A stretch of 64,000 bases of DNA from Schmidtea polychroa. Lineage: Eukaryota. Shown piece after piece: positions 14,904 through 60,553 of the stretch. The stretch's first letter is position 1. Each line of letters starts with the position of its first letter. Position numbers and translations under genes: made by a program. The stretch spans positions 16,246,001 through 16,310,000 of the forward strand of contig CM097885.1 of the NCBI GenBank assembly GCA_044892525.1, written 5' to 3'. The notes under the pieces are model-generated. The model made no database searches. It was not told the DNA's origin and saw only the letters and a program-made list of their open reading frames with translations.

Positions 14904-15904
14904 AAAAAACATTTCAATAAAGAATTTATTTTGGGTTTTGATTTGTTTTATTGTTTGCCTTTTTTTATTATATTTTTATTATATTTATTATATGAGATTA
15001 TTATTGTGGTAATTATTGTCATTCTCGCCTTCCATCCGATATCATCATCACGTGGCGGAGCGCTCACAGCAAATTGCCAATTGAATATCAACATCAATTA
15101 TATAATTAAATAAAAGCAATTTAATTAAATCAAAAACATTTAATATAAATTAATTTGAATAATTATTATAATTAAATTAATAATTAATTTGAAAGAAATT
15201 AAATTAAAATTCACCCGAATATAAGCGCTGACAAATCGCCTCAACAAATCAAACGCTCCTATGACGAATGGAACTGACGAGAAAAAAGCCGCTGATGTTA
15301 TATGAGTTTTGGATAAATTATTGCTGTAATGAATGGCAGTAAAATGCACCTAAATGCAATACTAACACTGCGTTATATCAAATTGATAAATGCTTTAACA
15401 TTTCGCCAGCTATTTGTGAGGCATTTAAACGAAAATCCGCAACAACAATACTGATCAAATGTTCGAAAATTGCTTTCACGTCTGTTTTGATAAGTCGATT
15501 CGATGAGGGCAATCAATGCTTTCTAAACTCTATAACATTCTGTTACGAATTCTTTTAATAATTAAACGAATTAATTTATTTAATCTTTCATAAAATTTAG
15601 ATCTCTTAAAGGTCTCGAGTCAGATTTACCAATAATATTATTGTTAATATAATAATAATAATAATTGCATTTGTACTGAGATCCTTTTTAAGAGCTAGTG
15701 ACCTGATTTAATATTAAATAATGTAACATTTCATAAATTTATTCACTTTTTCATTCGCTAAATTTTCAAAAAGAATATAATTTAAACAAAAAGGATTTCA
15801 TGTAAATTAATATTTAAATTCACAAATTTGATAAATTTTATAAATGAATTTTACTTATTAACAAACAACGAAATTTATCTTGAATTCTTGAAATTATAAA
15901 ATAA

Positions 15905-16440
15905 AGGGAATCATTTAGGAAATTTATAAATTAGGTTTTAAAGTGAAGTTGAATCCAATACGTAATCTACATCAATACCTTGGGGTGATAAGTGACGGTT
16001 ATGGGGTTTAAGTGTGGTCATTTATAAAATTTATAAATTATTATCTTAAATTAAACGGAAGTTGAGCATACATAATAAAGTAATTAACATTAGCGAAGTT
16101 GGTACTTGATTGATGGTCATATTACTTGAGGGGGTCATAAATAAAATTATAATTTTAAAATCCAAAATTTAAGTTAGACATTTTTAAGTAAACAATTTAC
16201 ATTAATACATTTAGGATGAAAATAGTAGTGGTAGCACTTTAGAGGGTCATAAATAAAATTTGTAAATTATAGTGTTAGAATCAAACTTTAAGTCAGACAT
16301 ATATAAGTAAGCAATATACGTTCATACATTAAGGATGAGATTCGTAGTGGTGGCACTTTAGGGGGTCAAAAATAAAATTTGTAAATTAATATTTTGATTC
16401 TCAAATACAAGTTGAATAAATATATAGATAACCTATATTA
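15905..16440. repeat. Degenerate ~110-120-bp tandem repeat
   Basis: Recurring ggg(g)tcataaataaaatt and agtggtagcactttag motifs; inverted copy at ~44330-44665. Confidence 0.55.
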
Positions 16441-21662: not shown

Positions 21663-22595
21663 ATCACATCTGAGGTTAGTTTTTTTTTCAACATAAAATA
21701 ATATTAAAAATTTGAAAATAATATTGAAAATAGTGTGGGTATCTTATATTTATAAAGTACTTGTATATTTTATTTTATTTATTTTATTTTATTTTATTTT
21801 TTTATTAATTAATTATTTTTTAAACATAAATATGAAAAAAAAAATATTGAAACGGGTGATGGTGGCGAACCGGTAATTATCGCCACCTGTCTTTCGAACA
21901 CCCCCGGATCGATCCCGGTAATGTGCACATTTATTTCTCAGTTGTTTTCGGACCTCTTTCGGATTCGCTTTCGAATTCATTTGTACTTTCGAGCAGCACA
22001 CTTAAAACGCCGTTGAAATCGACTTCGTGAGCGAGAAGCGAATAATAAGGCGTGCTGCTATTATCGGATTGATTCTGATGTATGAGTCTGGCCAGCTTGT
22101 ATATTGGAAGAGATTTGATAAACGAAAGAGGTTGATAAATAAAAAAAAAAATTATCCGGATCAAAAAAAAACTGTTGAGGGGACAGTGAAAAAAAAAAAA
22201 AAAAATACCACTGTCCCCTCAGAGCAGTTTTACTATTTTCATAAAATTTTTTATTTTTAAAACTTACAAAACCTTAAGGTGATCAGGCGACCTAGATCAT
22301 TATGAATTAGGTAATCTGATATTCTTATAACATTAAATCCTTAAGACCAAGTAGTGAGGAATCTATGCACCCCGTTACCTTTTCTCGGAATTACTAATCT
22401 ATAAATACATCTATTCCGAACTTTTTTACTTTTAAGGGAAGAAATTAAGGGTTAATGGCAATAGGGGACAAAGTTTAAAAGTTAAAAAAAGTGAAGAATA
22501 TGGGGTAAAAAAGCATATAAATGTGGAAAATATGGGTCAATAGCGCTGTTTTTTTTTAGGGTGGGGGTGCTGGGGTGCATAGATTCCTCACTACT
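21663..22595 (-). mobile_element. Left-arm remnant of Polinton B
   Basis: Reverse complement of 58786-59718; ends ..CCTCACTACT followed by CCCCTC. Confidence 0.9.
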
Positions 22596-27430: not shown

Positions 27431-27498
27431 TTATTCTATGTTATTATTATCTATATTATTGTTATCATTATTATTATTATTATTATTGTTAATATTAC

Positions 27499-27586
<88 letters not shown>

Positions 27587-27619
27587 ATTATTATTATTAT
27601 TACTCTTAATTATTATTAA

Positions 27620-27694
<75 letters not shown>

Positions 27695-27764
27695 TATTTT
27701 TATTATTATTACTACTATTATCATTATTATTATTACTCTTAATATTACTATTTGTTACTGTTGC

Positions 27765-27824
<60 letters not shown>

Positions 27825-27860
27825 TATTATTATTATTATTATTAATATTATTATTATTAC

Positions 27861-27927
<67 letters not shown>

Positions 27928-27950
27928 ATTACTACTATTATTATTATACA
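27430..27950. repeat. (ATT)n microsatellite tract
   Basis: Directly visible; source of the poly-I/L/N/Y ORFs. Confidence 0.98.
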
Positions 27951-28260
27951 TATCATCATTTATAATTACGGTACTACCTGTCAATCACCGAATGGGTTAA
28001 TGTAGGAACCCTTGTAGGGGTTCTGCCTATTTGGTGGTCTTTTTAGTTGTTCATATTAATACTATAATCATTTGTACTATACTATCTCTACTATAATCAA
28101 AAAAAAACATGTTCTCCCCTTCGGCTGGAAGCCAAGAAGATTTTACTAAAATAAAATTTGATTTTTTTTTTTTTTTTTTACAATTATTATTATTATGATG
28201 CTGATGATGATGATGATGATGATTAGCAACGGTAATAGCAACACATTGGTATCACCCCTC

Positions 28261-28547
28261 AGTAGTGGGGATATATCCCTAACGACCACAGGCCTCCCAC
28301 TGTTTTCATGTTTTATGGCCATTTTACCCCCAAAAACGTACAAAAAAACACTAAAAACCCTTAAAAACCTATATCTTTTAATTTCTTTATTCTGAAGACA
28401 TTTTGGTTTCAAAATAAAGACTTAAAAAAAAACAACAAAAATATTAAAAAAACAACAAAAATATTAATAAAACGGGGAAAAAAATACTGATAAAACTATG
28501 AAAAACGTTTGTCGGCTTGCGGTCGTTAGGGATATAAACACACTACT
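28261..28547 (+). repeat. Left terminal module of A, itself bounded by inverted repeats
   Basis: Ends in gcggtcgttagggatataaacacactact, an inverted copy of the terminus. Confidence 0.9.
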
Positions 28548-28740
28548 TGAGGATGTCAACTAGCAAGTTGCTATTTGACTAATTTATAATTTTATAAATC
28601 TTAATCTTGAAGAATAAAAAATTTTATGAAAATAGTAAAACTGCTCTGAGAGGACAGTGGTATTTTTTTTTTTTTTTTTTTTTCACTGTCCTCTCAACAG
28701 TTTTTTTTGATCCGGATCATTTTTTTTTTTTTTTATTTCA

Positions 28741-29038
28741 ACCTCTTTCGTTTATCAAATCTCTTCCAATATACAAGCTGGCCAGACTTATATATCAGAA
28801 TCAATTCGATAATAGCAGCACACCTTATTATTCGCTTCTCGCTCACGAAGTCGATTTCATCGGCGTTTTAAGTGTGCTGCTCGAAAGTACAAATGAATTC
28901 GAAAGCGAATCCGAAAGAGGTCCGAAAACAACCAAGAAATAAATGTGCACATTATAGAATCGATCCGGGGGTGTTCGAAAGACTGGTGGCGATAATTACC
29001 GGTTCGCCACCATCACCCGTTTCAATATTTTTTTTTTC
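28741..29038 (+). ncRNA. Candidate structured non-coding RNA or ssDNA element in Polinton A left arm
   Basis: Several long-range helices, GAAA loops, terminal T-run; conserved in B at 59249-59546; strand is inferred. Confidence 0.45.
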
Positions 29039-29170
29039 ATATTTATGTTTAAAAATTAATTAATTAATAAATAAATAAATAAAATAAACAAGATTTATTT
29101 CCTAAGATACCCACACCATTTTTCAATATTATTTTCAAATTTTTAATATTATTTTATGTTGAAAAAAAAA

Positions 29171-29245
29171 CTAACCTCAGACGTGATTTGAACCGCTAGC
29201 ATTTGAACCACTGTGCCAGTCTATTCCCACTGCGCTATCGGAGTT
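29171..29245 (-). ncRNA. tRNA-like Pol III unit A1
   Basis: Minus strand A-box TAGCGCAGTGG, B-box GGTTCAAATC, T9 terminator. Confidence 0.65.
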
Positions 29246-29414
29246 CGGATTTTTGTCATTTTTTAAATTTTTAATTAATAAAAAAATAAAATAAAATAAA
29301 TAAAATAAAATAAAAATAAATAAAAATAAATAAAATAAAATATTAATCTAAGATACCCACACCATTTTCAATATTATTTTCAAATTTTTAATATTATTTT
29401 ATGTTAAAAAAAAA

Positions 29415-29489
29415 CTAACCGTAGTTAGGATTTGAACCGCTATCCATTTGAACCACTGTGCCAGTCTAGCCCACTGCGCTATCGGAGTT
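29415..29489 (-). ncRNA. tRNA-like Pol III unit A2 (tandem duplicate of A1)
   Basis: A-box TAGCGCAGTGG, B-box GGTTCAAATCC, T9 terminator. Confidence 0.65.
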
Positions 29490-29525
29490 CGGATTTTTAT
29501 CATTTTTTAAATTTTTATTATAAAA

Positions 29526-30821
29526 ATGAATAATATAAATCTTAAAATTCAAGAAAAAAATAAATTAAATCTTGATTATAATAAAGAATTTACTCATGAA
29601 ATTAAAAAAAATGATATTTTAAAAATATCCCCAACTTCAGGATCTATTGCAAACTTAAATCGTAGGGGTGATATAGTTTTTCAATCTCTTCAAACATCAA
29701 ACCCAATAGATATTTGTAATGCCAAATTATATTATAAAATCGAATTAGAAATTGAAGCAAACAAAGATATAACCCTAGAAAATAATTTCTTTCCAAATTT
29801 ATTCTCCAACATGAGATTAAAACTAGGATCATCAGAAATTGAAACTGTTTTGCACCCAGGAGTATATTCTACAATGTTAAATTTTATTTTAACTGGTTGT
29901 GATTATAAAAACGAATATGGTGAATTAACAGGTTGGATTCCTGATGTTAATAAAGGAGATTTAGATAAAGATGGTTTAGATGTAAACCATGGTTACTATA
30001 AAAGAGCTGAACTTTATAAGTTGAAAAAATTTGAAGGTTATTTTGAATTAAAACACTTGTTCGGATTCCTTCAAAACTATAACCGGGTGCTCCATAATGT
30101 TTTTATAGAATTAGTTTGTAATAGAGTAGAAGGTGATAAAAGATTGTTCTATGGAGCTGCAGATACAAAAGCTAAATTAAAATTATCAACACTTGAATTG
30201 CATATACCTGAATGGACATTAAATCCACATTCTGAGATTAAACTCCTTGAAAGATTAAATTCCAACAAATCTATAAATGTAAATTATTTAAATAGAATCT
30301 GTAGTGAATTTAGTATGACAGAGGGTTCAACATATTCTATAAAGGTAGCAAATTTAGCATACCGACCAAGATATATCTTGATTGGATTCAAAGAAGTAGA
30401 TTCATCTTTCCAAAAAAATAACAATCTATTTATTCAAAAGATTGGAGATGATAATTTAAAAACAATCCAAATTCAATTAAATAGTTCTTATTATCCAATA
30501 AATAGAATGGAATTTAATATTGAAAATAATGAAAACATATTCCCATATCTAAATTATATTGAAACATGTTATTATTTCAAAGTTGAACCGCAATTAAGTT
30601 TAGAAGATTTCAAAAATTTATATTCTATATTTTGTATAAATGTATCAGACCAAGATGATCGCCTAGCTATAAATAATGTTGATGTTACACTTCATGTAAC
30701 AAAGGATTCTAATTTTAAAGCTAAAGTATATACATTAATATTAGAAGAAAAGAAAATAGAAATGAAATTATATGGTGGAAAGATTTCAATTATTGAAAAT
30801 GTTAAGGGAGATTCTTCATAA
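29526..30821 (+). CDS. Major capsid protein (double jelly-roll, Polinton PY)
   Basis: 431 aa; LENNFFPNLFSNMRLKLG..IE, RPRYILIGF, IFCINVS motifs; genomic context. Confidence 0.85.
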   Translation: MNNINLKIQEKNKLNLDYNKEFTHEIKKNDILKISPTSGSIANLNRRGDIVFQSLQTSNPIDICNAKLYYKIELEIEANKDITLENNFFPNLFSNMRLKLGSSEIETVLHPGVYSTMLNFILTGCDYKNEYGELTGWIPDVNKGDLDKDGLDVNHGYYKRAELYKLKKFEGYFELKHLFGFLQNYNRVLHNVFIELVCNRVEGDKRLFYGAADTKAKLKLSTLELHIPEWTLNPHSEIKLLERLNSNKSINVNYLNRICSEFSMTEGSTYSIKVANLAYRPRYILIGFKEVDSSFQKNNNLFIQKIGDDNLKTIQIQLNSSYYPINRMEFNIENNENIFPYLNYIETCYYFKVEPQLSLEDFKNLYSIFCINVSDQDDRLAINNVDVTLHVTKDSNFKAKVYTLILEEKKIEMKLYGGKISIIENVKGDSS

Positions 30822-30850
30822 GTAGATTCCCCCATAAAAAAACTTTTAAA

Positions 30851-32263
30851 ATGAGTAAATATTGGACATGTGAAAGTTGTAATTGTCAAGTTACAAGACA
30901 TCACAAAGCAAGTCATCTCAAAACTAAAAAACATACGAGAGTTGATATTACAGGAGGCGACCTACAATCTTCAAAAACAACATCTACAATATTAAAACCT
31001 TTTACTACAGAAAAATATCCAGGTGAAAGACATTTATTCCGTCACAATTATACTGGGCCAGGAACAAGATTAGATATTAGATTAGATGAAAATAATAATC
31101 CTAAACAAGGAGAAGAACCAATAAATAGAATTGATCAAGCAGCTTTAAAACATGACATTGCTTACAACTCTGAAGATCTTAGAGATAGACATGTTGCTGA
31201 TGTGAATTTAATACATGATTTAAATAATATACAAAATCCATCAAGCAAGGAAAAGATTCAAAGAGCTCTAGTTAAATTAGCAATGAAAGGTAAGATTTTC
31301 ATAGGCTTAGGACACAGTCCGATCACCATGGGTGCAAGATTTCCTAGGAAAGCAAAAGATGTTGCTAATAAAAAGATTATCGAACAAGCAGAGATTGAAA
31401 GATCCCTCGAGAGTACAGCTAAGACTAGTTTACAAACCCCAACAGAATCAGAAATAAAATATGCTAATGAATTACACCATGAATTTAGAAAAAATAAAAA
31501 ATATTTAAAAGTTCAAGTACATGAAAAAGATCAAACATGGTCTGCAGATTTAGTCTTTATGCCAACCAAATCATCAGACCCTGAAAAATATAAAATAATT
31601 TTAACAGTAATAGATTTATATACAAGATTTGCTTTTGCAAGGTGTTTAGAAAATAAAACAGGATATTCTATTACAGAAGCATTTGAAAATATATTTGAAG
31701 AACATCAAAGAATTCCAAAATATTTATGGTGTGATAAAGGAACAGAATTTTATAACAAAGTTTTTACAAAGTTTTTAAATGAAAATGATATTAAATTATA
31801 TTCAACAGAAAACGAAGGAAAAGCAGTCGTAGTTGAAAGATTAAATAGAACATTAAAAAATAAAATGTGGAAATATTTTACTGCTATTGGAAAACAAAAA
31901 TGGAACAATGAATTGTTACAAAAGATTGTAAATGAATATAATAATGATGTACATAGTTCTATAAAATCAACACCTTTAAATGCTTCCATGAAGCCTGAAA
32001 CCATTAAAGTGGTAAATATTGAAAATGATGTTATTGTTGATACAACCCCTATAAAACCAAAGTTTAAAATTGGTGACCGAGTAAGAATATTTAAATATAA
32101 AAATAAATTTGAAAAAGGATTCACAGCAAAATGGACAAATGAAATTTTTATTATAAATAAAATACATTATACAACTCCAATAACATATAGCATCATTGAT
32201 TTAAATAATGAAAAAATATTAGGTAGATTTTATAATAATGAACTACAGAAAACAGATTTTTAA
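30851..32263 (+). CDS. Zn finger + parvovirus-type PLA2 domain fused to a retroviral-like DDE integrase
   Basis: CESC..HLKTKKH; NYTGPG..DQAALKHDIAY..RHVAD; WSADL, WCDKGTEF, VERLNRTLK. Confidence 0.92.
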   Translation: MSKYWTCESCNCQVTRHHKASHLKTKKHTRVDITGGDLQSSKTTSTILKPFTTEKYPGERHLFRHNYTGPGTRLDIRLDENNNPKQGEEPINRIDQAALKHDIAYNSEDLRDRHVADVNLIHDLNNIQNPSSKEKIQRALVKLAMKGKIFIGLGHSPITMGARFPRKAKDVANKKIIEQAEIERSLESTAKTSLQTPTESEIKYANELHHEFRKNKKYLKVQVHEKDQTWSADLVFMPTKSSDPEKYKIILTVIDLYTRFAFARCLENKTGYSITEAFENIFEEHQRIPKYLWCDKGTEFYNKVFTKFLNENDIKLYSTENEGKAVVVERLNRTLKNKMWKYFTAIGKQKWNNELLQKIVNEYNNDVHSSIKSTPLNASMKPETIKVVNIENDVIVDTTPIKPKFKIGDRVRIFKYKNKFEKGFTAKWTNEIFIINKIHYTTPITYSIIDLNNEKILGRFYNNELQKTDF

Positions 32264-32274
32264 GTCGACAAGCC

Positions 32275-33054
32275 CTAAAACAAACTTTTCCATATTTCAG
32301 CTTCTTCTCTATCCAAATAAATATAATTATATTTTTCTTTCCAATGATTATCAACAAACATATCAAACATATTCTTATCAGGTTCAACATTTGAAAATAA
32401 ATCATTATAAATCATATTCTTATCACGCTTGTCTAATTTAAAAAATATAAAACAATTAGAATTATTTCTTATAGAGTTTTTATCTAAAGCATAATATGTT
32501 TGAGATATATAAATAACATTACAATTATTATGTCGACCTCGTGTAAAGTAACTCTTTTGAATCTCTTGATTTTTCATATTAACAACATCATCAAATATAA
32601 CTAGATTCTTTTTATCTTTAGGAAGTAAATCACAATGTAAAACATCTTCAGGTTTATTAGAGAATAAGATCTGGATTCCATCCCCTATATAATCATTTTT
32701 ATTACTAATATCTGATTCTAAAATCTTTTCCTTGTACCAATCAACCATATCACAAGGATGAAAAACCTCTTCGGGATATGTATGTTGATTTTTAAAAATA
32801 TCAATTATAGCTTTTTTAGTTAATTTATTTTCAAATCCACATTTCAAAAGTTGTAATTCCGGTTGGTTAATGGTTGTAGAATAAAAGATTAAATTATTAT
32901 AATCCAAAAATCCATCTTCTAATAACATTCTCATAAGAAGAACATTCTTTCCACATCCAGAAGATCCAATAATTAAGCATCTAAAATTATCAGGAAATAC
33001 TTTAATATTAAATTTAGATTTATGTCTATTTAAAATTGGTTTCCAAGTATCCAT
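32275..33054 (-). CDS. FtsK/A32-like DNA packaging ATPase
   Basis: Walker A GSSGCGKN, Walker B VIFDD, RGRHNN. Confidence 0.93.
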   Translation of the reverse strand: MDTWKPILNRHKSKFNIKVFPDNFRCLIIGSSGCGKNVLLMRMLLEDGFLDYNNLIFYSTTINQPELQLLKCGFENKLTKKAIIDIFKNQHTYPEEVFHPCDMVDWYKEKILESDISNKNDYIGDGIQILFSNKPEDVLHCDLLPKDKKNLVIFDDVVNMKNQEIQKSYFTRGRHNNCNVIYISQTYYALDKNSIRNNSNCFIFFKLDKRDKNMIYNDLFSNVEPDKNMFDMFVDNHWKEKYNYIYLDREEAEIWKSLF

Positions 33055-33070
33055 TTTTATTTATTATAAA

Positions 33071-33586
33071 ATGACAACACAAAACCCTACAGAGGAATCT
33101 TTGCAAGAATTAATAAATTCAAATAAAAATAAATCAGTAGTAATCTCTGGTAAAAAATATTTTATTGGAAAACATGTAAAAGAACAAGTTGAAGAAAAAC
33201 TAAAGGAAGGAGGGATTCTTCCTCTGGCGGCTTTAATACCTGCAATCATTGCCGGACTATCAGGTGCTGCTGGAATAGCTGGAGGAATTGCAACTACAGT
33301 TCAAAAAGCTAAAGAATCTCAAAAGACAGACCTAGAAAAAGAAAAACTACAAACTGAAATCGAGAAAATGAAGGGAGGGAAAGGTCTTTATCTTGATCCT
33401 TATAAAGGTCGTGGTTTAAATGATTTTTTAAAAAATCAAATTTCTACATCTGAATCTTTATCTTCAAAAGATAAAGATGATTTAAAAAAAATATGTAAAT
33501 CTTTAAAAAATGGATGTCTTTGTAAAATTAAAAATGGTAAAGGTTTATACTTGAAACCCTTTCCAACGGATCCTTTACCAAAATGA
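33071..33586 (+). CDS. Putative virion core or membrane-active protein with adenovirus pX-like segment
   Basis: GGILPLAALIPAIIAG and repeated GKGLYLxP. Confidence 0.6.
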   Translation: MTTQNPTEESLQELINSNKNKSVVISGKKYFIGKHVKEQVEEKLKEGGILPLAALIPAIIAGLSGAAGIAGGIATTVQKAKESQKTDLEKEKLQTEIEKMKGGKGLYLDPYKGRGLNDFLKNQISTSESLSSKDKDDLKKICKSLKNGCLCKIKNGKGLYLKPFPTDPLPK

Positions 33587-33608
33587 TACCATTTTTAATA
33601 CCATTAAA

Positions 33609-34406
33609 ATGGTATATGAAGAAAGATTAGCACTTTTAAAAGAATTACAATCAGAACAAGATAAATATAATAAAAAAGATACAACTCAACACGCTGAATC
33701 TATAATATTAAATGAGGTAATCCAACAACAACAAGGACCAACAATTAAAGCCATAAAAGAGTTAGAAGTTTTAAAATTTAAAGAGTTGGAAGATAAACAA
33801 GATTTAAAAGAATTACCATGGTTGGAAGATTTAAATATAAAACCTCTTATACTTGATCCTAAAATTAATGTGAGTTTAAGTAAAACAATTAAACCTACAT
33901 TTAATATTAATGTTGAAGGATATCAAATAATAACAATTAATAAACATGACTTTCTGTTATATTTATATTCAGAAAATAAATCACGTATTCATTCACAAAA
34001 TGTTTATAATACTAAACACCTAGATTTTGAATTTACAGATGATTTTTATGGATTAGTTTGTGGATATCCCTCAGAGAATGTTGATCTTCTAGAAATTAAA
34101 AAATATTTAAATTTAATAGAATTAGTACATGGTAGTGCTAAAGCAAAACATATTCAAGATTTAAAGAAATATTTAAATAAAAATGAAAGGGGTTATATTG
34201 TCACAGAAGGAGAGGGCCAGGGTCAGGGCCAGGGAAAGGGTAAGGAGATAAACCCAATCAATCTTTTTATTGAATTAAGAAAACTATTAGCAGCTAAAAA
34301 AGCAGGACATAATAATTTAGATTCTGATATTTTAAAGATTTCTAAAGAATTATTAAAACAAGGAATAATTTCAAAAGATAAATTTAATAAATATACGAAG
34401 TTATAA
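33609..34406 (+). CDS. Polinton protein of unknown function
   Basis: 265-aa intact ORF, GxG repeat, C-terminal LLAAKKAGHNN..ELLKQGII. Confidence 0.7.
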   Translation: MVYEERLALLKELQSEQDKYNKKDTTQHAESIILNEVIQQQQGPTIKAIKELEVLKFKELEDKQDLKELPWLEDLNIKPLILDPKINVSLSKTIKPTFNINVEGYQIITINKHDFLLYLYSENKSRIHSQNVYNTKHLDFEFTDDFYGLVCGYPSENVDLLEIKKYLNLIELVHGSAKAKHIQDLKKYLNKNERGYIVTEGEGQGQGQGKGKEINPINLFIELRKLLAAKKAGHNNLDSDILKISKELLKQGIISKDKFNKYTKL

Positions 34407-34428
34407 ATACGAAGTTATAAAATATAAA

Positions 34429-34860
34429 ATGACTCCTTCAATATTAGATTTTTTAAAAACATTTGGAATAAATACAAAAACAAATTTTGATTTAAAAGAT
34501 TATGCAGATTATTTAAATTTAAAAATAAAAATATTAATGAATGATGAATTGTCGAGTCTGAAAGAAGACACTCCAAAGAATATCATTATAAATTATCAAA
34601 ATTCAAATGAAAAAGGATCTCATTGGGTTTTTATATATAATAAATCTATATACTTTGATTCTTTTGGGATTAAACCCACTAAAGAAGTTGAAGACTATCT
34701 CTCGGACTACACTTTTAATTCATTACAAGTTCAACCTAATAATACTAAAATATGTGGTATTTTAAGCTTATATGTTTTGTATAGATTGAATAAATCCAAA
34801 GGAGAAGGTTTCACTTCCTTAATCCAAGAAATTTATAATGATTTAAAATCTATACTATGA
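34429..34860 (+). CDS. Adenain-like cysteine protease
   Basis: GSHWV, YFDSFG, QVQ..ICG (His-Asp-Cys triad). Confidence 0.92.
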   Translation: MTPSILDFLKTFGINTKTNFDLKDYADYLNLKIKILMNDELSSLKEDTPKNIIINYQNSNEKGSHWVFIYNKSIYFDSFGIKPTKEVEDYLSDYTFNSLQVQPNNTKICGILSLYVLYRLNKSKGEGFTSLIQEIYNDLKSIL

Positions 34861-35627
34861 AAATGGAGCTTCGCAACCTTCCGGAAGATAATTTAAAAAA
34901 AATGGTAAACATAATGTCAGATAAATATTCAAGAACTTTATCTATAAATTCAAAAGAATCAGACTTTACTATAAACTTTCAAGATTCAATTAAATTAGAT
35001 CAAAATTTAAATTATGAATTAGGACTATTATGGTTTTGTGCTTATAATACTATTTTTAATATAACTAAAGATAATAACATATTTTATTATATAAGCCCAA
35101 AATCTACAGATAAGATTATAATAACAATCGAACCCGGAGCTTATGAGATAAAAGATTTAAATAATATACTTTCTAAAAAAACAAATGGAGTCATTAAAAT
35201 TAAAATGGATTTACCAACTTCAAAATGTATAATGACTTTAGAGAATATAGGAATTCATTTTCAAAATAATAGTTTCTTTAGAACAATTTTAGGATTTACA
35301 CGAAACCATTATATCACACCTGTAGTTGAGAATATAACATCAGAAAATATTATAAAAATAATAAATACAAACACAATAAATATTCATTGCGATTGTATAA
35401 CAGGTTCTTATAATAATGGTAAACAAACAAATGTTTTATATTCCTTTCCCTCAAACACAGTTCCTATGGGATATAAAATAGTTGAAAGAATGAATCCTCC
35501 AAATTATTTACCTTTATGTAGAAAATATATAATGGATATTAATTTTAAAATTCTTAATCAAGAAGGAGAATTGATTGATTTTAATGGAGAAGAGATTTCA
35601 ATGTATTTACATTTGAAACAGGTTTGA
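34857..35627 (+). CDS. Minor capsid protein (penton, PX)
   Basis: IEPGAYEI, NIHCDCITGSY.NG...VLYSF, IDFNGE. Confidence 0.85.
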   Translation: MKMELRNLPEDNLKKMVNIMSDKYSRTLSINSKESDFTINFQDSIKLDQNLNYELGLLWFCAYNTIFNITKDNNIFYYISPKSTDKIIITIEPGAYEIKDLNNILSKKTNGVIKIKMDLPTSKCIMTLENIGIHFQNNSFFRTILGFTRNHYITPVVENITSENIIKIINTNTINIHCDCITGSYNNGKQTNVLYSFPSNTVPMGYKIVERMNPPNYLPLCRKYIMDINFKILNQEGELIDFNGEEISMYLHLKQV

Positions 35628-35664
35628 ATACGAAGTTCCACATGTCATTTTAAATTATTAATAA

Positions 35665-36675
35665 ATGAGTTCTTATATTCCATGTAATAGAGGTGGTGGA
35701 ACAATAAAAACAGGGTTTAATACAGAAGAAATATTAACTTTAACAGAAAATAAATATATTAATGAAAGAGGTGATTCAATGAAGGGTGATTTAATTTTAA
35801 ATGGACACAAGATAAAAGAATTATCTTTTCCAACTGATGAAGCTGATGCAGTTAATAAGAAATATGTTGATGGTGTTAAAAATTATACTGATTTAACAAC
35901 AACAAGAATTGAAAGTTCATTAACAACAAAAATGGATTCAATGGAATCAAAGCTTAATAATATCGAACAACGATTTAATGATAAATTTGACAAGTTACAA
36001 AGTCTGTTAACTGAACAAGTTGTAAAGTTAAATACTAGCATATTAAATTCTAAAGATAAACAAATTATGAATACTAAATTTAATACAATATATAATATAA
36101 TAAATGAGATGATTACATCATTTAATAAAAGAATTTCAAATTTAGAGTCTCATGGAACACACATTAACACCACACATAGTATTAGAAAAAGAGCTGCTGA
36201 ATTAGAACAGAATAAAACATTATTACCCCATACATATAAACATTTTATAGAACCAAGTTTAATAACAACAAACAGTAAAGAATGGGGTGTTTTTATGGTT
36301 GTAAAGATTATTGATCCTTATTTCTTTTTGTTTGATGATGATAATGAAAGAATGAAATGGTTTGTGAAATGTGATTATAATAGTAAGCTTGAAAAGGGTG
36401 ATGTTATAATGACTAGTTATGATTTACCACACGGAGATTGGTATGTTAATACTCATTCACATGGACTACATAAAGTTAAAAGTAAGAATATTATTTTTAA
36501 AAGCACACTTGTACAATATATAGGTTTAATATTTTATGAAAAAAAGGTTGATGTTGATGAAGTTCGTAAAGCATTGAGAGAATTGTATAAAGATATCCTC
36601 TCAACAAGAGTTTCTTTTGATATCCGAGTATTGGTGACAGATGGTGCTCAGAAGAATAAAGTCTTATTTTTTTAA
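35665..36675 (+). CDS. Putative fibre/spike protein
   Basis: GDLILNGHKI..PTDEADAVNKKYVD tail-fibre-like motif, coiled coil, C-terminal globular part. Confidence 0.55.
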   Translation: MSSYIPCNRGGGTIKTGFNTEEILTLTENKYINERGDSMKGDLILNGHKIKELSFPTDEADAVNKKYVDGVKNYTDLTTTRIESSLTTKMDSMESKLNNIEQRFNDKFDKLQSLLTEQVVKLNTSILNSKDKQIMNTKFNTIYNIINEMITSFNKRISNLESHGTHINTTHSIRKRAAELEQNKTLLPHTYKHFIEPSLITTNSKEWGVFMVVKIIDPYFFLFDDDNERMKWFVKCDYNSKLEKGDVIMTSYDLPHGDWYVNTHSHGLHKVKSKNIIFKSTLVQYIGLIFYEKKVDVDEVRKALRELYKDILSTRVSFDIRVLVTDGAQKNKVLFF

Positions 36676-36683
36676 TTATTAAA

Positions 36684-37305
36684 ATGGACAAAGTCCAAAA
36701 GATGGAAGAAGTAAGAGAAGAAAAAAATTTATCCAGAGCTCCCTCCAGAATTGAGATCATCAGGATATTATTTTTCCAAGGCCTCGGCTCCCACAGAACT
36801 TGAAATTATGAGAGTAAAAGAATTTAAATCAGAAACCTTACATTTACAAGATTTATTAAAGCATTATAAAAAAATTAAAAATAGATGGAATAAAGGGAAT
36901 ACAGTTTTAAAAGTTATAGGTTATTCTTTAGGATTTGCATCTGCAATATTAACAGTTATTTTACCCATAACTTTACCAGTTGTTACTCTTGCACCTGTAA
37001 TACTTGGAAGTATTTCTGTAGCTGATGGTTTCTTAACTGAAATAGTTTCATTATCTTATACTTCTAAAAAGAAAAGTTTATATAGAGAAGTTTGTTTATC
37101 AATAGAATTAGGAATCTCTAAATTATTTTTATTTCAATTAAAAGCTTTGGAAGATGGAATCTTAACTGATGATGAAATAATGAAATCAAATCAAATAATA
37201 CAAGATATTAAAAATAATATTAATAGATTAAAAAGTGCTAATGTTATAAGTAATGAATATTCTAAAAAAATTAAACGAGAGAAGTGGCTAAAGAATCATA
37301 CATAA
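36684..37305 (+). CDS. Hydrophobic-hairpin Polinton protein (gasderminX-like); likely start 36684 with a 1-nt frameshift in the A7 run at 36721
   Basis: Two hydrophobic segments and KALEDGILTDDE; removing one A joins MDKVQK.. to IYPELP.. Confidence 0.6.
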
Positions 37306-37378
37306 AAAAATTTTTTGCCCTTCAAAAGGTTGATGTTGTCACTCTTAAATTAATTGTTGACATTTTTAAAAAAAAAAA

Positions 37379-40300
37379 TCATTTGATAGAATCTGATGTT
37401 AACTTTTCGAAATTAGTTTTTAGAACCTCTTTATGATCTTTAAATTCTTTATCACTTAGACCTTTTATATATTCAGGATCAGTATTAAAATATTTAAGTT
37501 CTAAAGATATAGGATTAAAAACTTGAGAATATAAAGGTCTGTCAATTCTTGGGGGATAAATGATCTCAACTCTATAAATATCAAGATCAGTAAGATTTAA
37601 ATCATAGACTTCATTTATTTTATCAAGACTTTTTATTATAGGGATTAAATCATTTCCTATAGGTAGTGTTGTTTTCATATCAGACAAGATGAATCTTTTG
37701 TCATCATAATTTGATAATGATACTTTTTGGGATTCTATCAAGTAGATATCATGCTTTTCACTTTTAAGTTGATGTACTTCATCAATTTTATCTTTATGAC
37801 CTGGATTCAATGTGTCTTTATAATCTTGATGAGAAAGTTTCCTGGCTACACATCTCTGAATTCCTTTACATCTGTTATCCTTTACAGGTTTCTCGGCTTC
37901 CAGTCCTCCCGGGAATATAGGATATCTATGTGTAATGCTTTCTTCTGTATCTGGGGTTTTAAATATAAATGTATGCTCTTCAAATTTAGGTTTTGTAAAT
38001 GTTTCGTATGAATATTGTTTAGCACGAATAAATATTCCATTTTCTATTGGGGTATTTGGTTTTTCATCTTTAAATGAAAATAACTCTCCAGATGAATTTA
38101 TTAAATTTGAAAGTATAGGATTTTCAGATATATCCCTTTCAAGGTCCTCAGTTCTTATTGTTAAAAACATTGAATCTGTATCCATTGCATGCATTGCTAT
38201 ATTAGGACCATATATAGGATGTAAGACATTATAATATGTTTCATACATTTGCAATTTTGAAAGTTCTAAAATTGCAAAGCCTATAAATATTGGTTTATTA
38301 TATGTTTTCTCAAAATTCTGTAGTTCTACTGCAGTAAGATTTTCAGAAAATACTTGTGCGTTTTTAAATGTAGGCTTTCCTAGCATACGATTATAACGGG
38401 CTACATCTTTTTCACTATTTGTCAAGAGTTCTATATTAGTATACTTGTCCACATTCTCCATTGTTTTCCCAAAGACTGAATTGTTTAAAAGTTTATAACC
38501 ATTGTCTTTTAAAAGGTTACCTTCTCTTTTTGCAATGTTTCTACAACGGATGTTCTCCTCGATGAAAGTCTTCATGAATGCTGCTTGTTTAAATCTTATG
38601 ACACTATGAACTTTTTTTAATATCATTCCTTGTGAAAGATAAAACTGTAGGAGTCTATAGTGACAAAGATAATAAGTTCGATCTGTTTGATCACAAAGAA
38701 GTTTCACTGTTGGAGGTTTATCTTGTGAGATTTGCCAGGATGAAAGTTCTTGGACATTAATCTTTCTTCTTATAGGAGCTAGAGGGAAATGTCTTGTTCC
38801 TGATTTTATATCACCTGGGTAATCGAGGTCACATTCTATAAAGTATCCTATTGGAGAATCTTTAGGGGTTGAACGTATTTCTTTTATAAGGTCTTTTAGG
38901 GTGGAACTCTGTATGGATTCTTCTTCTTCTTCTTCAGAGGAGGAGTATATCTCACGAAAGTCACTCATTGGTAAATACTGAGTCATAATTCCTGAATATA
39001 AAGCTGTTGCATCTATATAAAGTATAAATAGAGGATTTTTCATTCCTTCTAATACTTCTTTTAGTTCCTCATCGTTAAGTTTTATATATGGATCATCAGA
39101 GAGCATTCGGCTAGTAGTTATTGCATTTCTAGCTTTTATTTCTCTATTCCCCATTACTGAGGATACTCCTCCTCTAATGTTTGTTTTAATTAAATTAAAC
39201 ATGTCTTGCTCGGTTAAAAGATCTATAATTTTATCAGATTCTGGAAGATCTGAAGTCCAAATGGTATATAACATAGTATCCCAAGCTAAAGAAGGAGCTG
39301 TTATATAATTATAAGGTTTTAGGACAAAAGACTTTGTAAACTCTTCAAAGCAATCTGCCAGAATGTAAACATCTAAGGATAAGTACATACTTGTATATTC
39401 TCCTAAAGTTTTACAGTCGAACAGGTGAAACATTTTCTGAGCTCGGGAATATTCAGTGTCTGTAATCCCAGATTTTGAAAGTAGTGAATAAAAGTACTCT
39501 TTCTCTGGTAATTTTGTTTCCTTATATTTTTCAAAGGAGTCAACGTAGTCATAGGGATATATTCCCTTCGCCAAGCATGCGGAATATTCTTCTGCTGGTA
39601 TATTATTTTTTTCCAAGAACTCCCGAGTGATTTTAAAATCTTCTAGCTTTAATGTTTTTGCTATGCCATCTAAAGACATTTGGAGAAAGTTTAAGGAATC
39701 TATAAATTTTAATTTCCCATATTCAAGTGATTTATATTTTTCCTTTGTTAAGCCAATAACCTTGAAAGAGTTTTTGGCATTTGCTGCTAGATGCTTTATA
39801 AATAGATGTACGTCATAACCAAAAAGATTATGAAATATAACTGGTACAAATTTAGGAGTATGACAATTAAGATTGCAATCTCTATGGGCTGCTCCTCGAT
39901 AATTATTTTCACTTTTTAAATGATCGTGATCTATAACCTTATCATTAGTTGGGATCTCTTGTTTGCACATCCAACAGTTGAATGTATTTTTATATTCTTC
40001 TAATTGTTGATCTGAAATATTTTGAGGATACTTTGTTTTTAATGCTTCAAATATTTCATGTTCTAGATCATTTATACTTGTAGTAAAATGATCCAAGACA
40101 TCTTCTGAAGTTCCTTGAAATGCATATTCTCTAGATTCTATGACTTCGGGATAATTACTTTTAAATAATAATTTATAAGCAGATGGTAATTGTTTAGTTT
40201 TTTTAACACTATTGGGTTTATTATTTTTTCTTAGAAAGGCCTTCAACCTTGTTGGTTTCTCCTTCTGTTTAGAGGCTTTCCATTCATCCATGAGTTTATA

Positions 40301-41722
40301 TTTTTCTATTATTTTTAAATATTGCTTGACTAGATCTTGTTTATGATTTATAGATTCAAAGTCTCCGTAAATTACTCCTAATGTTTGTAATAAATTTGAA
40401 AAGTTTTTAAAATACATCCTGGGATCTGTAGGCATTCTAATTAAAGCTGGTGAATCCTTTTCACAAAATCTTGCATGCTTAATCATGGAGTTTTCAGTTG
40501 TTGAATAATGAAGACATCTTTTACACATTCCTCCTCCACTAGTTGGATTCTCTGGAGATGTAAAAGCTTGAAAGTTTTTTATTAAAATATAATGTTGATT
40601 ATTTTCATGTTCCAAGATTAAAAGATATATCTCCCTCGTGCTATCGCTTCCCTGTATTTCATAATCAGAAATATAAATTGGAATAATATCTCTGCATCCA
40701 CGTCCCCATCCTTTAACATGTTCATAAATATTAAGTTTAAGATTATTTAGTTTTTCAAATTCTGGAATGTCTTCTAGTTTCATTGGATGCATGAATCCTC
40801 CTGGGAATATTAATTCATTTTCATATTCTTTGTATTTTGAAACTCTTTGGGGGTTTTCGGTTTGAGGATGTAAATGTGCAAGTATTGACCACATGAAACC
40901 TTTGTTATCCTTATTCTGCACATTTATAACATTTTTAGATTTAAAGGGTGTAGGAATATAGGATTTAGGATTAGGTGGTAATCCCCTCCAATAATCAATC
41001 ACTAAAGATTGGAAGGAATGAAATACTAAGTTTGAATCTCCTAATTCATTTTCAATCTCTTCTTGTTTTGCTTCGACTGCTTGAATTATTTCTTTGATGC
41101 TTTTATTAAATCCTCTAGTTGAAAATAAATATTTAAAAGGCATTGGGATTTCAACATCTAAAGGAATTGTGTCTTCTTGTCCTTGGCTTTGCGCTCTCCA
41201 ATATTTTGCTTTTATTGTGATTTTATATTTTATAACATTATACCTTGTCGGTTTATAATTTTTTAAAGCCTCACAGAAAGAATCTTTTATATTTTTTTTA
41301 TTTCTCTTTATATATTCTCCAGGGGTTGCAGGTCCATTAATTTTTAATTTAAATTCATCTATATGATTAAAATTATCCCAGTTGTATTTTTCTCTTTCAA
41401 CATGATCAGGTTCTCCTTCTGAATAACATTCCTCATCCTCGGGATTTTCTTTTATATGTTCTTTTAAATGTTTTAAATAGTAGAAATTTATTTTTGTTGA
41501 AAAGTTACAATGAGGGCATGTAAATACTTCTCTAAGTCTCCCGATACAATTTTCAAAATGTTTATTATATCCTGAATGTAGATATCTTCCTTTACATTTA
41601 GGACAGAGTTTTGAATTTGTGTCATTAAGATTATTTTCTTTTAGTAAGTGAGCCTTCGACTTACAGTGGGAAATTAATCCTGTTTTATTTTTAAAAACTT
41701 TATTGCAAATATTAGAGTTCAT
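37379..41722 (-). CDS. Protein-primed family B DNA polymerase with N-terminal Zn fingers and an endonuclease VII-like insert
   Basis: YGDFES, CWMC..DHDH..RGAAHRDCN, FHNLFGYD, KLLNNSVFGKTMEN, DTDS, YDDKR. Confidence 0.95.
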   Translation of the reverse strand: MNSNICNKVFKNKTGLISHCKSKAHLLKENNLNDTNSKLCPKCKGRYLHSGYNKHFENCIGRLREVFTCPHCNFSTKINFYYLKHLKEHIKENPEDEECYSEGEPDHVEREKYNWDNFNHIDEFKLKINGPATPGEYIKRNKKNIKDSFCEALKNYKPTRYNVIKYKITIKAKYWRAQSQGQEDTIPLDVEIPMPFKYLFSTRGFNKSIKEIIQAVEAKQEEIENELGDSNLVFHSFQSLVIDYWRGLPPNPKSYIPTPFKSKNVINVQNKDNKGFMWSILAHLHPQTENPQRVSKYKEYENELIFPGGFMHPMKLEDIPEFEKLNNLKLNIYEHVKGWGRGCRDIIPIYISDYEIQGSDSTREIYLLILEHENNQHYILIKNFQAFTSPENPTSGGGMCKRCLHYSTTENSMIKHARFCEKDSPALIRMPTDPRMYFKNFSNLLQTLGVIYGDFESINHKQDLVKQYLKIIEKYKLMDEWKASKQKEKPTRLKAFLRKNNKPNSVKKTKQLPSAYKLLFKSNYPEVIESREYAFQGTSEDVLDHFTTSINDLEHEIFEALKTKYPQNISDQQLEEYKNTFNCWMCKQEIPTNDKVIDHDHLKSENNYRGAAHRDCNLNCHTPKFVPVIFHNLFGYDVHLFIKHLAANAKNSFKVIGLTKEKYKSLEYGKLKFIDSLNFLQMSLDGIAKTLKLEDFKITREFLEKNNIPAEEYSACLAKGIYPYDYVDSFEKYKETKLPEKEYFYSLLSKSGITDTEYSRAQKMFHLFDCKTLGEYTSMYLSLDVYILADCFEEFTKSFVLKPYNYITAPSLAWDTMLYTIWTSDLPESDKIIDLLTEQDMFNLIKTNIRGGVSSVMGNREIKARNAITTSRMLSDDPYIKLNDEELKEVLEGMKNPLFILYIDATALYSGIMTQYLPMSDFREIYSSSEEEEEESIQSSTLKDLIKEIRSTPKDSPIGYFIECDLDYPGDIKSGTRHFPLAPIRRKINVQELSSWQISQDKPPTVKLLCDQTDRTYYLCHYRLLQFYLSQGMILKKVHSVIRFKQAAFMKTFIEENIRCRNIAKREGNLLKDNGYKLLNNSVFGKTMENVDKYTNIELLTNSEKDVARYNRMLGKPTFKNAQVFSENLTAVELQNFEKTYNKPIFIGFAILELSKLQMYETYYNVLHPIYGPNIAMHAMDTDSMFLTIRTEDLERDISENPILSNLINSSGELFSFKDEKPNTPIENGIFIRAKQYSYETFTKPKFEEHTFIFKTPDTEESITHRYPIFPGGLEAEKPVKDNRCKGIQRCVARKLSHQDYKDTLNPGHKDKIDEVHQLKSEKHDIYLIESQKVSLSNYDDKRFILSDMKTTLPIGNDLIPIIKSLDKINEVYDLNLTDLDIYRVEIIYPPRIDRPLYSQVFNPISLELKYFNTDPEYIKGLSDKEFKDHKEVLKTNFEKLTSDSIK

Positions 41723-41793
41723 TTTTAGAATAAATTTTTTTACTGGATCCTATGTTTTCTATTTTTCTATTTTTATTTTTCTATTTTTTTATT

Positions 41794-41899
41794 CACCAGT
41801 ATTGTATTCACCAAGACCTGGATTCACCAAGACCTGTAGCACCAAGACATGTAGCACCAAGACCTGTAGCACCAGTATTGTATTCACCAAGACCTATAG
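41794..41899. repeat. 15/16-bp tandem repeat (CACCAAGACCTGTAG) x7 upstream of pPolB
   Basis: Directly visible. Confidence 0.9.
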
Positions 41900-41907
41900 T
41901 TCCTCCG

Positions 41908-42150
41908 AGTAGTGGGGATATATCCCTCACGACCGCAGGCCGATATACGTTTTTCATAGCTTTATAGCCATTTTTCTCCGTTTTGTAGGCTTAAATCCAT
42001 ATTTTTTAAATTTTGCGAAATAGAGCAAAATAAAAAATGTGCGTTTTTAAGGGTTTTTAGTGTTTTTTTGTACGTTTTTTGGGGTAAAATAGCCATAAAA
42101 CATGAAAACAGTGGGAGGCCTGTGGTCGTGAGGGATATATCCCCACTACT
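41908..42150 (-). repeat. Right terminal module of A, itself bounded by inverted repeats
   Basis: agtagtggggatatatccctcacgacc at 41908 and its reverse complement ending at 42150. Confidence 0.92.
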
Positions 42151-59031: not shown

Positions 59032-59701
59032 TGGTCTTAAGGATTTAATGTTATAAGAATATCAGATTACCTAATTCATAATGATCTAGGTCGCCTGATC
59101 ACCTTAAGGTTTTGTAAGTTTTAAAAATAAAAAATTTTATGAAAATAGTAAAACTGCTCTGAGGGGACAGTGGTATTTTTTTTTTTTTTTTTCACTGTCC
59201 CCTCAACAGTTTTTTTTTGATCCGGATAATTTTTTTTTTTATTTATCAACCTCTTTCGTTTATCAAATCTCTTCCAATATACAAGCTGGCCAGACTCATA
59301 CATCAGAATCAATCCGATAATAGCAGCACGCCTTATTATTCGCTTCTCGCTCACGAAGTCGATTTCAACGGCGTTTTAAGTGTGCTGCTCGAAAGTACAA
59401 ATGAATTCGAAAGCGAATCCGAAAGAGGTCCGAAAACAACTGAGAAATAAATGTGCACATTACCGGGATCGATCCGGGGGTGTTCGAAAGACAGGTGGCG
59501 ATAATTACCGGTTCGCCACCATCACCCGTTTCAATATTTTTTTTTTCATATTTATGTTTAAAAAATAATTAATTAATAAAAAAATAAAATAAAATAAAAT
59601 AAATAAAATAAAATATACAAGTACTTTATAAATATAAGATACCCACACTATTTTCAATATTATTTTCAAATTTTTAATATTATTTTATGTTGAAAAAAAA
59701 A

Positions 59702-59777
59702 CTAACCTCAGATGTGATTTGAACCACTATCCATTTGAACCACTGTGCCAGTCTATTCCCACTGCGCCATCAAGGTT
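59702..59777 (-). ncRNA. tRNA-like Pol III unit B1 (homologue of A1/A2)
   Basis: A-box TGGCGCAGTGG, B-box GGTTCAAATC, T9. Confidence 0.65.
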
Positions 59778-60023
59778 TGAATTTTTGTCATTTTTTAGAC
59801 TATAAATAATCGATTCAAGTTCTTTAACTCTTTCCTGTAATTGTTTCATTTTCTTCAATCTTATATCAGCAACATCTACAGCCTTCATATAAAAATGTCG
59901 ATACTTTTCATTATCTACCATCAACTCTTTGATGTATTCTAATGGTTCTTCTTCTCTTCTTTTCATTCTCTTATGTTTAACTTCATTCAATTCATTTCTC
60001 ATTCTTTCTTTTAACTCATCCAT
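59727..60023 (-). CDS. B-specific small coiled-coil protein
   Basis: 98 aa, AAAAATG start context like the other Polinton genes; absent from A. Confidence 0.6.
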   Translation of the reverse strand: MDELKERMRNELNEVKHKRMKRREEEPLEYIKELMVDNEKYRHFYMKAVDVADIRLKKMKQLQERVKELESIIYSLKNDKNSNLDGAVGIDWHSGSNG

Positions 60024-60188
60024 TTTTATAAATATTTTTTTATTGGATATATTAATTTTTGGTAGTTAAAACGTTTTTGATCTTAAATTTCCAAGAGTTG
60101 CCGTTGACCAATCACCTTAAAAATTTGTAAAAGTACTAAATCGAGTATGCTGATCAATATTTTGTTTAAAAAAAAATTTGAAAAAAAA

Positions 60189-60262
60189 TTGACCGAAATG
60201 GGATTTGAACCCATTGGTATTGGCAATGCAGTCGAGTGCTATTACCACTAAGCTAAACTCAA
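60189..60262 (-). ncRNA. tRNA-derived Pol III unit B2 (tRNA-Cys-like)
   Basis: TAGCTTAGTGGTAATAGCACTCGACTGCA..ATGGGTTCAAATCCCAT..T8; perfect T-arm, broken anticodon stem. Confidence 0.7.
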
Positions 60263-60422
60263 TATAAAATAAGTTGTTAATGTGTGACTATTTATTGATG
60301 AAATTAATAATTAATTATTCATTTTCTCGACAACTACCACTCAGATCGATCTGAAAATTTAAATATATACTAAAATCAGTACGCTGAATCAGATTCCGTT
60401 GAAAAAAAAATATCGAAAAAAA

Positions 60423-60498
60423 TTGACCAAAATTGAAAATTGAACCCGGTACTCCCGGTGATAAAATTGAAGCCTATTCCCACTCCGCTATAATGGCT
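60423..60498 (-). ncRNA. tRNA-like Pol III unit B3
   Basis: A-box TAGCGGAGTGG, weak B-box GGTTCAATTT, T-run. Confidence 0.5.
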
Positions 60499-60553
60499 TA
60501 CATAATATATTTAATTAATCCTATTGTGTGTGTGTAAATTTTAATATATAAAA

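Follow-up and report, generated by a model that had tools for sequence, protein, structure and literature searches.

The left non-coding arm of a Polinton/Maverick element carries what, judged from its sequence, is a real candidate for a strand-specific structured RNA of no known family. Our preferred reading, for which we regard the case as evenly poised, is a Polinton-encoded non-coding RNA gene that would be transcribed outwards, antisense to the capsid gene, by the Pol III of the host. Host TFIIIC would bind internal A and B boxes at the spacing of a tRNA gene, and Pol III, starting near position 29020, would pass a lone T4 in part of the transcripts and terminate at a cluster of T4, T4 and T6, giving a short head RNA and a read-through RNA of about 390-400 nt that, as a decoy or Dicer substrate, may blunt host dsRNA sensing or RNAi while the Polinton is active. 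The location, strand, fold, boxes, T-runs, array and low divergence discussed below come from the sequence. A preliminary description of this DNA had proposed an unannotated viral ncRNA, which is still the best-supported option, now read from the minus strand, as a Pol III-type gene within an array.

Host Polintons and copies of the RNA gene

The window, i.e., the whole 64-kb stretch of DNA that was analysed and to which all positions refer, is AT-rich eukaryotic DNA carrying TRAF-type and proteasome genes; for the proteasome fragment, chains named alpha type-6 score 179 bits and the next groups at most 146 bits. The top entries are mammalian, and we take the host to be an animal. The segment singled out in the preliminary description (28741-29038) sits 480-780 nt inside the left end of Polinton A, in its left non-coding arm (Table 1). 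Element A has the features of a Polinton, namely pPolB, an integrase, a double-jelly-roll (DJR) capsid, a packaging ATPase, 131-bp TIRs with (AGT)2 ends (AGTAGT...ACTACT) and a 6-bp duplication (CCCCTC), of which the end motif and the duplication agree with the description given in PMC8097293. A second copy of the RNA gene lies in the left arm of Polinton B and a third (copy C) within a 6.3-kb inverted duplicate, 99.6% identical, of the left end of Polinton B and the flanking RLE-type retroelement, the insertion site of B. Over the RNA, copies B and C do not differ at all, so that the three copies amount to only two distinct sequences. Within the 64-kb window, all three copies lie in Polinton arms and none outside, and the right end of Polinton A has no counterpart of the gene. 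Polintons A and B have in common the RNA gene and ~95% identical capsid, integrase and ATPase DNA, yet different termini; they are mosaic elements whose outer arms (28261-28606 versus 58786-59119) cannot be aligned.

Several other features of these elements were observed. An inverted copy of its own 26-nt terminus, with 0-3 mismatches, is seen ~220-260 nt inside each Polinton end (28522-28547, 41908-41933 and 59006-59031), so each end could fold back on itself. Both Polintons have CCCCTC(AC) as target, in opposite orientations (28255-28260, 42151-42158 and 58778-58785); in the window this 8-mer is confined to the Polinton junctions and the duplicate with copy C, and a target-site preference is possible. 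The RLE-type non-LTR retroelement, which we take to be R2/NeSL-like, has zinc-finger, RT and endonuclease parts (22596-27430 and 53960-58785, minus strand) and is interrupted by Polinton B; it contains in-frame stops near 22732, 23766, 26085 and 26487 and a frame change near 22990, and is followed by an (ATT)n tract. Large inverted duplications surround the TRAF gene cluster (21663-28017 = 59718-53380; 7576-16246 versus 48410-44326). The 6.3-kb duplication begins inside the B box of unit B2 and runs beyond the retroelement tail, and is thus not a simple retrocopy. A 171-aa ORF at 33071-33586 in Polinton A weakly matches core protein X of adenoviruses (E 0.0035), and a match of this kind is also described for adintovirus accessory genes (PMC8502044).

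Table 1. Positions of the host elements, the predicted RNA gene and its parts, and the sister units in the window.
Feature	Position	Strand	Remarks
Polinton/Maverick element A	28261..42150		host element of the 28741-29038 segment
DJR capsid gene, Polinton A	29526-30821
Integrase with PLA2-like domain, Polinton A	30851-32263
A32 ATPase, Polinton A	32275-33054	minus
pPolB (protein-primed polymerase B), Polinton A	37379-41722	minus
Polinton B	from 58786		second Polinton; continues beyond the window end
Predicted Pol III RNA gene, copy A	28616..29020	minus	long form about 385-405 nt; from fold z, boxes, T-runs and end of A/B homology
RNA gene, copy B	59129..59529	minus	left arm of Polinton B
RNA gene, copy C	21852..22252	plus	within the 6.3-kb inverted duplicate
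A box TGGCGAACCGG	28999..29009	minus	1 mismatch to consensus TRGCNNARYGG
B box GGATCGATTCT	28956..28966	minus	1 mismatch; 0 in copy B
5' hairpin	28969..29018	minus	GGGUG/CACCC (5 bp) and 9-bp stem containing the A box
Internal T4	28925..28928	minus	read through, or a possible early terminator giving a short form of about 95 nt
Structured body	28740..28922	minus	four-way junction closed by P1; z -6.68 minus, -3.66 plus
P1	28922-28913 / 28749-28740	minus	10 bp
P2	28895..28912	minus	7-bp hairpin; the P3 loop is an alternative partner for its 5' side
P3	28814..28881	minus	12-bp stem, large weakly paired loop
P4	28752..28812	minus	25-bp hairpin, 2x2 GA/GA internal loop; 6 G-U pairs in A, 9 in B
Possible pseudoknot helix	28910-28900 with 28841-28830	minus	TTCGCTT/AAGCGAA pairing read on minus; competes with P2
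A-tracts	A15 28734-28720; A8 28708-28701; A21 28683-28663	minus	A21 is the terminal-hairpin loop
Terminal hairpin	28637..28704	minus	8+13 bp (21 bp), A21 loop
Terminator cluster	28616..28640	minus	T4 28640-28637, T4 28632-28629, T6 28621-28616
Sister unit A2, tRNA-like	29162..29247	minus	A box 29237, B box 29194, T9 67 nt past A box
Sister unit A3	29406..29491	minus	A box 29481, B box 29438, T9; duplicated in tandem with A2
Sister unit B2	59693..59779	minus	A box 59769, B box 59725, T9
Sister unit B4	60181..60265	minus	A box 60255, B box 60211, T8
Sister unit B5	60416..60500	minus	A box 60490, B box 60446, T7 preceded by three internal T4 runs

Strand and fold of the predicted RNA

The preliminary description had called the segment highly structured, and this holds against shuffled controls, but chiefly on the minus strand (z -5.45, 0/200 shuffles as good) and much less on the plus strand (z -2.25, 4/200), on which it had been misread. 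For the extended unit (28632-29022), z was -10.35 on minus versus -6.23 on plus in copy A and -7.87 versus -4.30 in copy B, and none of 100 shuffles folded as well as the minus strand in either copy. When the 181-nt body was compared with 40 other 181-nt windows on either strand (12 shuffles each), it reached z -8.9 on minus and the best of the others -3.9. Minimum-energy folds of the body and the full unit contain 10-13 G-U pairs on minus versus 1-4 on plus (12-13 versus 3-4 for the extended unit). The pre-miRNA-sized hairpin P4, which was absent from the earlier list of stems, folds with -25.1 kcal/mol (z -8.3) on minus versus -6.9 (z -1.3) on plus in copy A, and with -23.8 (z -5.6) versus -2.1 (z +1.0) in copy B. 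By the fold z-scores, the G-U counts and, as the deciding element, the formation of P4 only there, the strand of the fold is minus. A plus-strand RNA was rejected, as it would have a weaker fold, lose P4 and contain no A+B box pair, and the plus-strand ORF at 28607-28942, which is of low complexity, has no Pfam match and is shorter and shifted in copy C, is taken as spurious.

All motifs quoted earlier lie where they had been placed, i.e., ACCTCTTTCG at 28741 with CGAAAGAGGT at 28912, AGCAGCACA at 28814 with TGTGCTGCT at 28873, CTTA at 28824 with TAAG at 28869, TTCGCTT at 28831 with AAGCGAA at 28903, GGGTG at 28969 with CACCC at 29014, GTTCGAAAGAC at 28973, and GGTGGCGA at 28985 with TCGCCACC at 29004. 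The word CGAAA indeed occurs five times, a count reached by 4/5000 dinucleotide shuffles. The ~290 nt given as the extent do hold these motifs, but the unit reaches about 125 nt further left of 28741, and the T-run at the right end is the upstream A-run of the minus-strand unit and not its terminator.

Read 5' to 3' on the minus strand, the predicted RNA comprises a promoter head, a weak T4, a four-way junction, A-tracts, a terminal hairpin and the T4/T4/T6 cluster, with a start that we infer to lie ~10-12 nt upstream of the A box, near 29020. The head alone folds no better than shuffles (z -0.5). For the pseudoknot suggested between TTCGCTT and AAGCGAA, a helix can be drawn on both strands, but it is not favoured energetically: on minus, the duplex of 11 bp with one bulge is worth -13.0 kcal/mol, freeing the strands costs 10.0 before any pseudoknot loop penalty, and 138/5000 shuffled loops pair equally well. 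A pseudoknot in the modelled RNA is accordingly no more than possible.

Two sequence words within the unit were also observed. TTTCG occurs five times on the minus strand, mostly as CTTTCG (28980, 28927, 28916, 28904 and 28886), and each occurrence could pair with the single CGAAAG near the 3' end of the body or be a protein-binding word. The arms of P3 (28814-28881) hold the mir-15 family word AGCAGCAC and its complement, which is probably due to chance; the Rfam mir-15 score is 13.8 bits against a cut-off of 57.3.

Promoter boxes, array and terminators

The B box of copy A follows the A box at 43 nt, the spacing of a tRNA gene, and the two boxes together have 1+1 mismatches in copy A and 1+0 in copy B to the consensus sequences. 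With these, the whole window was scanned on both strands at up to 3 mismatches, the pattern having been written after the sequence had been seen. All 8 A+B units found lie in Polinton left arms, face the terminus and have a spacing of 43-44 nt, with A boxes at 29009, 29237 and 29481 in Polinton A, at 59518, 59769, 60255 and 60490 in Polinton B and at 21863 in copy C; they are not independent and represent about four lineages. Block-shuffled windows (n=100) contained a mean of 0.53 and a maximum of 4 such units, and any A+B pair was present in 36/5000 shuffles of the 28741-29038 segment.

Each of the five short sister units is closed by a T7-T9 run 67-68 nt from its A box, where a tRNA gene would end. 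One of them, B4, gives a sub-threshold Rfam tRNA match (22.6 bits, E 0.094, cut-off 29), and ARAGORN called 0 tRNA genes. From their sequence, they look like worn tRNA genes with promoter and terminator retained. The acceptor stem and cloverleaf of a tRNA gene were not found in the head of the long unit (ARAGORN, Rfam and fold), and the 106-nt head has no Rfam match at E<=10, neither to tRNA nor to SRP models. The head presumably resembles the Alu 5' end; an origin from the SRP Alu domain was considered and has no Rfam support. A 98-aa ORF (59727-60023, minus strand) without convincing Pfam match was observed inside the array of Polinton B and is absent from A.

How far a transcript would extend depends on the terminators. 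Four T residues are described as the standard Pol III terminator (PMC7589676), and the RNA of copy A may thus end at about 95 nt. Much longer T-runs are used by the sister units, and the three T4 runs that precede the T7 of unit B5 hint that T4 is leaky here; alternative terminators with read-through are described for both VA RNAI (PMC7589676) and TMER1 (10.1101/2022.05.09.491269). The absence of T4 from the 284-nt body is unremarkable (4707/10000 shuffles). The homology of Polinton arms A and B stops just past the T6 and the sequences farther out are unalignable. Going by these sequence features, we consider it likely that the predicted Pol III RNA is transcribed, and fairly likely that, if so, head and body form one transcript.

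An arrangement without a long Pol III RNA is an unlikely alternative reading of the same array, in which the A/B boxes would recruit TFIIIC/Pol III at the DNA level, as an insulator or open-chromatin site with short RNAs only, while the body would be a separate cis-element in another transcript, e.g., a long minus-strand Pol II RNA. This would suit the T4 that follows the B box of copy A after 27 nt, the sister units, of which 4/5 fold no better than shuffles while boxes and terminator are kept, and the long-range helix between the B-box region of the head and the 3' part, which is not beyond chance (52/300 shuffles in A, 24/300 in B). However, the body directly adjoins the head, with no ORF of at least 80 aa on the minus strand inside the unit, and a hairpin and a stronger T-run cluster come after it; moreover, no second A/B pair was found for the body, which leaves it without a promoter of its own.

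Divergence between copies and searches for relatives

Between copies A and B, 5/181 sites of the body and 15/385 of the whole unit differ, versus 72/632 synonymous sites of the capsid, integrase and part of the ATPase, so that divergence is lower in the RNA than at synonymous sites (Fisher p 1.5e-4 for the body and 2.4e-5 for the whole unit); non-synonymous differences amount to 1.1-2.6%. The segment had been described as conserved, and the divergence is indeed low, as measured between two distinct sequences only. Such low divergence fits purifying selection, but recent exchange could give equally low values, as the arms are mosaic. In this comparison of two sequences, 3/5 body substitutions are A-U/G-U changes in P4 that keep the pairing on minus and break it on plus, one, the A-U to G-U stem change noted earlier for copy B, lies in P3, where it is real on plus, as G-U, but leaves a mismatch on minus if the register does not shift, and one lies in the P3 loop. 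In the terminal hairpin, the same two sequences differ by one double change, A-U/G-C.

The comparison with Rfam proposed in the preliminary description gave 0 matches at the gathering score and, at E<=10, nothing but sub-threshold matches to miRNA, snoRNA, antisense-type and other sRNA models. The SRP, 7SK, RNase P/MRP, vault and telomerase models have no match at E<=10, the telomerase template word CCTAA/TAACC is absent, and the VA model has no match at the gathering score or at E<=10. A search for relatives of the capsid returned 39 homologous proteins; relatives numbered 0 in viral contigs and 0 in genome contigs, and DNA was available for at least 16 metagenome loci, 15 of those listed being under 4 kb. 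None of the 16 listed loci contained an RNA homologue (BLAST, nhmmer and covariance model; best E 3.3) or a tRNA, and one (L012) has a single weak, atypically spaced A/B pair. A long G-U-rich hairpin (z -8.0) was observed between convergent genes at 5436-5515 (minus strand) of locus L002, a related Polinton with a 51% identical capsid; it has no sequence similarity to the 28741-29038 segment and no A/B pair. A 16-nt pattern had 6 matches in viral contigs, none extending beyond 21 nt, and these were dismissed as chance, as were candidate antisense targets of the RNA in the window (chance words only, E>=0.62).

The same data bear on whether the unit is a mere passenger, i.e., a SINE with a tRNA head or a host Pol III RNA gene that was captured and has diverged, in either case without benefit to the Polinton. 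Head, body and A-rich tail are the anatomy of a SINE, and an RLE-type non-LTR element adjoins. Like tRNA-derived SINEs and rodent BC1 or primate BC200 RNA, the predicted RNA has a Pol III head refolded as a hairpin, an A-rich region, a 3' stem-loop and a U tail; unlike them, it is found in Polinton arms only (in the 64-kb window), brings its own terminator and has a large structured body. It also ends in a hairpin and T-runs instead of an A tail. The neighbouring retroelement, the sole one compared for the SINE trait of a 3' end in common with a partner LINE, has no such end and yields only 11-12-nt chance words (E 0.27-0.94). Together with the lack of Rfam matches to the host RNAs named above, the confinement of the window copies to Polinton arms and the divergence below that of synonymous sites, this makes a passenger quite improbable.

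The packaging or replication signal of the preliminary description would take the form of single-stranded DNA folded on the displaced strand in protein-primed strand-displacement synthesis, which the G-U strand asymmetry and the promoter boxes render less likely. The unit lies some 350-760 nt inside the left terminus, also folds when DNA parameters are used (raw values of -71.5 on minus and -63.8 on plus) and has a terminal hairpin that is strand-neutral (z about -9 on both strands in copy A), all in keeping with such a signal. Yet P4 relies on 6-9 G-U pairs, which is typical of RNA selection, promoter boxes and terminators flank the fold, and a counterpart at the right end of Polinton A is missing; we judge it very improbable. 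A self-cleaving ribozyme of a new class, for instance one separating head from body, is just as doubtful a prospect: the multi-helix junction with its possible pseudoknot, the fivefold TTTCG and the strong sequence conservation would suit it, but a search for known ribozymes found no Rfam match at E<=10 (hammerhead, HDV-like, twister, pistol and hatchet) and no CTGANGA hammerhead core on either strand, and inspection of the one HDV-L3-like word, which occurs on plus alone, showed that the remainder of that fold is missing.

Comparison with known Pol III RNAs and possible functions

The predicted RNA is VA- or TMER-like in layout but, having no Rfam match, no terminal stem and no cloverleaf, a member of neither group. 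As in adenovirus VA RNA I/II, there are intragenic A and B boxes, a wobble-rich long stem and U-run terminators, and the host Polinton and adenoviruses, which are akin, have capsid, ATPase and pPolB types in common. Unlike VA RNA, it is about 400 nt long (versus about 160), its 5' and 3' ends form separate hairpins with no terminal stem, it has A-tracts and it belongs to an array of tRNA-like units. Here GGGU precedes the A box and ACCC the B box, closing the 5' hairpin, whereas in VA RNA GGGU-ACCC forms the central tetrastem. VA RNA is described as having internal A/B boxes and a U-run terminator with read-through to a second one (PMC7589676) as well as a wobble-rich long stem and a central pseudoknot (PMC6599070), and this layout binds dsRNA sensors and Dicer without triggering them (PMC6599070; PMC7589676).

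The TMERs (tRNA-miRNA-encoded RNAs) of murine gammaherpesvirus 68 (MHV68) are several Pol III units with a tRNA-like 5' part followed by hairpins and with alternative terminators (10.1101/2022.05.09.491269). The Polinton units resemble them in sequence layout only, by forming an array of Pol III units with downstream hairpins and alternative terminators; the Polinton head lacks a cloverleaf (neither ARAGORN nor Rfam calls a tRNA), the long body occurs in one unit only and forms a four-way junction instead of simple pre-miRNA hairpins, and the virus lineage is different. A small DNA virus has BocaSR, a Pol III RNA whose A/B boxes are internal and which is described as required for viral DNA replication (PMC8242256). 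This human bocavirus RNA is a precedent for a replication-linked job of the Polinton RNA but differs in its length of 140 nt, its VA-like fold, its single gene and its ssDNA virus. Non-coding RNA cargo is also present in polinton-like viruses, with 558 tRNA matches described among 8300 PLV/virophage genomes (PMC12220804). However, those are recognisable Rfam/ARAGORN families in protist elements, whereas the units described here are degenerate and invisible to Rfam and ARAGORN at standard cut-offs, and one has a long fold without Rfam match.

If the long RNA exists, its job may be that of an abundant double-stranded decoy or Dicer substrate, a proposal purely by analogy with VA RNA and TMERs that we make tentatively and hold to be somewhat short of an even prospect. 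It is ranked first since a wobble-rich helix on a multi-way junction is the layout of VA RNA. PKR-type sensors are usually quoted as needing roughly 30 bp, and PKR is vertebrate-specific; P4 alone, with 25 bp, falls below this length, which counts against a decoy. Sequestration of poly(A)-binding protein by the A-tracts, in analogy to BC1/BC200, would be a second candidate, and a BocaSR-like role in replication would come third.

Implications for Polinton biology

To our knowledge, descriptions of Polintons deal almost entirely with their proteins. Among viruses, those of vertebrates are known to make Pol III RNAs (VA, EBER, TMER and BocaSR), which act against dsRNA defences or assist replication. 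A literature search, thin on subscription papers and without Repbase, found no report of a Pol III or VA-type RNA in Polintons or adintoviruses; the available text of the adintovirus paper (PMC8502044) has no mention of VA RNA or non-coding and mentions tRNA once, in a figure legend, and that of the vertebrate Maverick paper has no mention of tRNA, non-coding or polymerase III. The novelty thus lies in a candidate viral-type Pol III RNA in an element group for which no such report was found.

In the furthest-reaching interpretation, animal Polintons would encode functional Pol III RNAs and the ~400-nt RNA would be a new structural class acting as an anti-defence decoy, which we consider rather unlikely but worth stating; equally speculative is the definition of that class by a tRNA-derived promoter, a pseudoknot-capable junction, a long wobble helix and poly(A) tracts. 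If true, this would provide RNA-level evidence for an infectious or reactivating phase of Polintons and place the transition from tRNA to VA RNA in the Polinton lineage related to adenoviruses. The candidate RNA, which lies in a Polinton that looks intact, offers a cheap and direct test of the transcriptional activity of Polintons and their engagement of host RNA defences, and may serve as a model for the origin of VA-type RNAs from captured tRNA genes.
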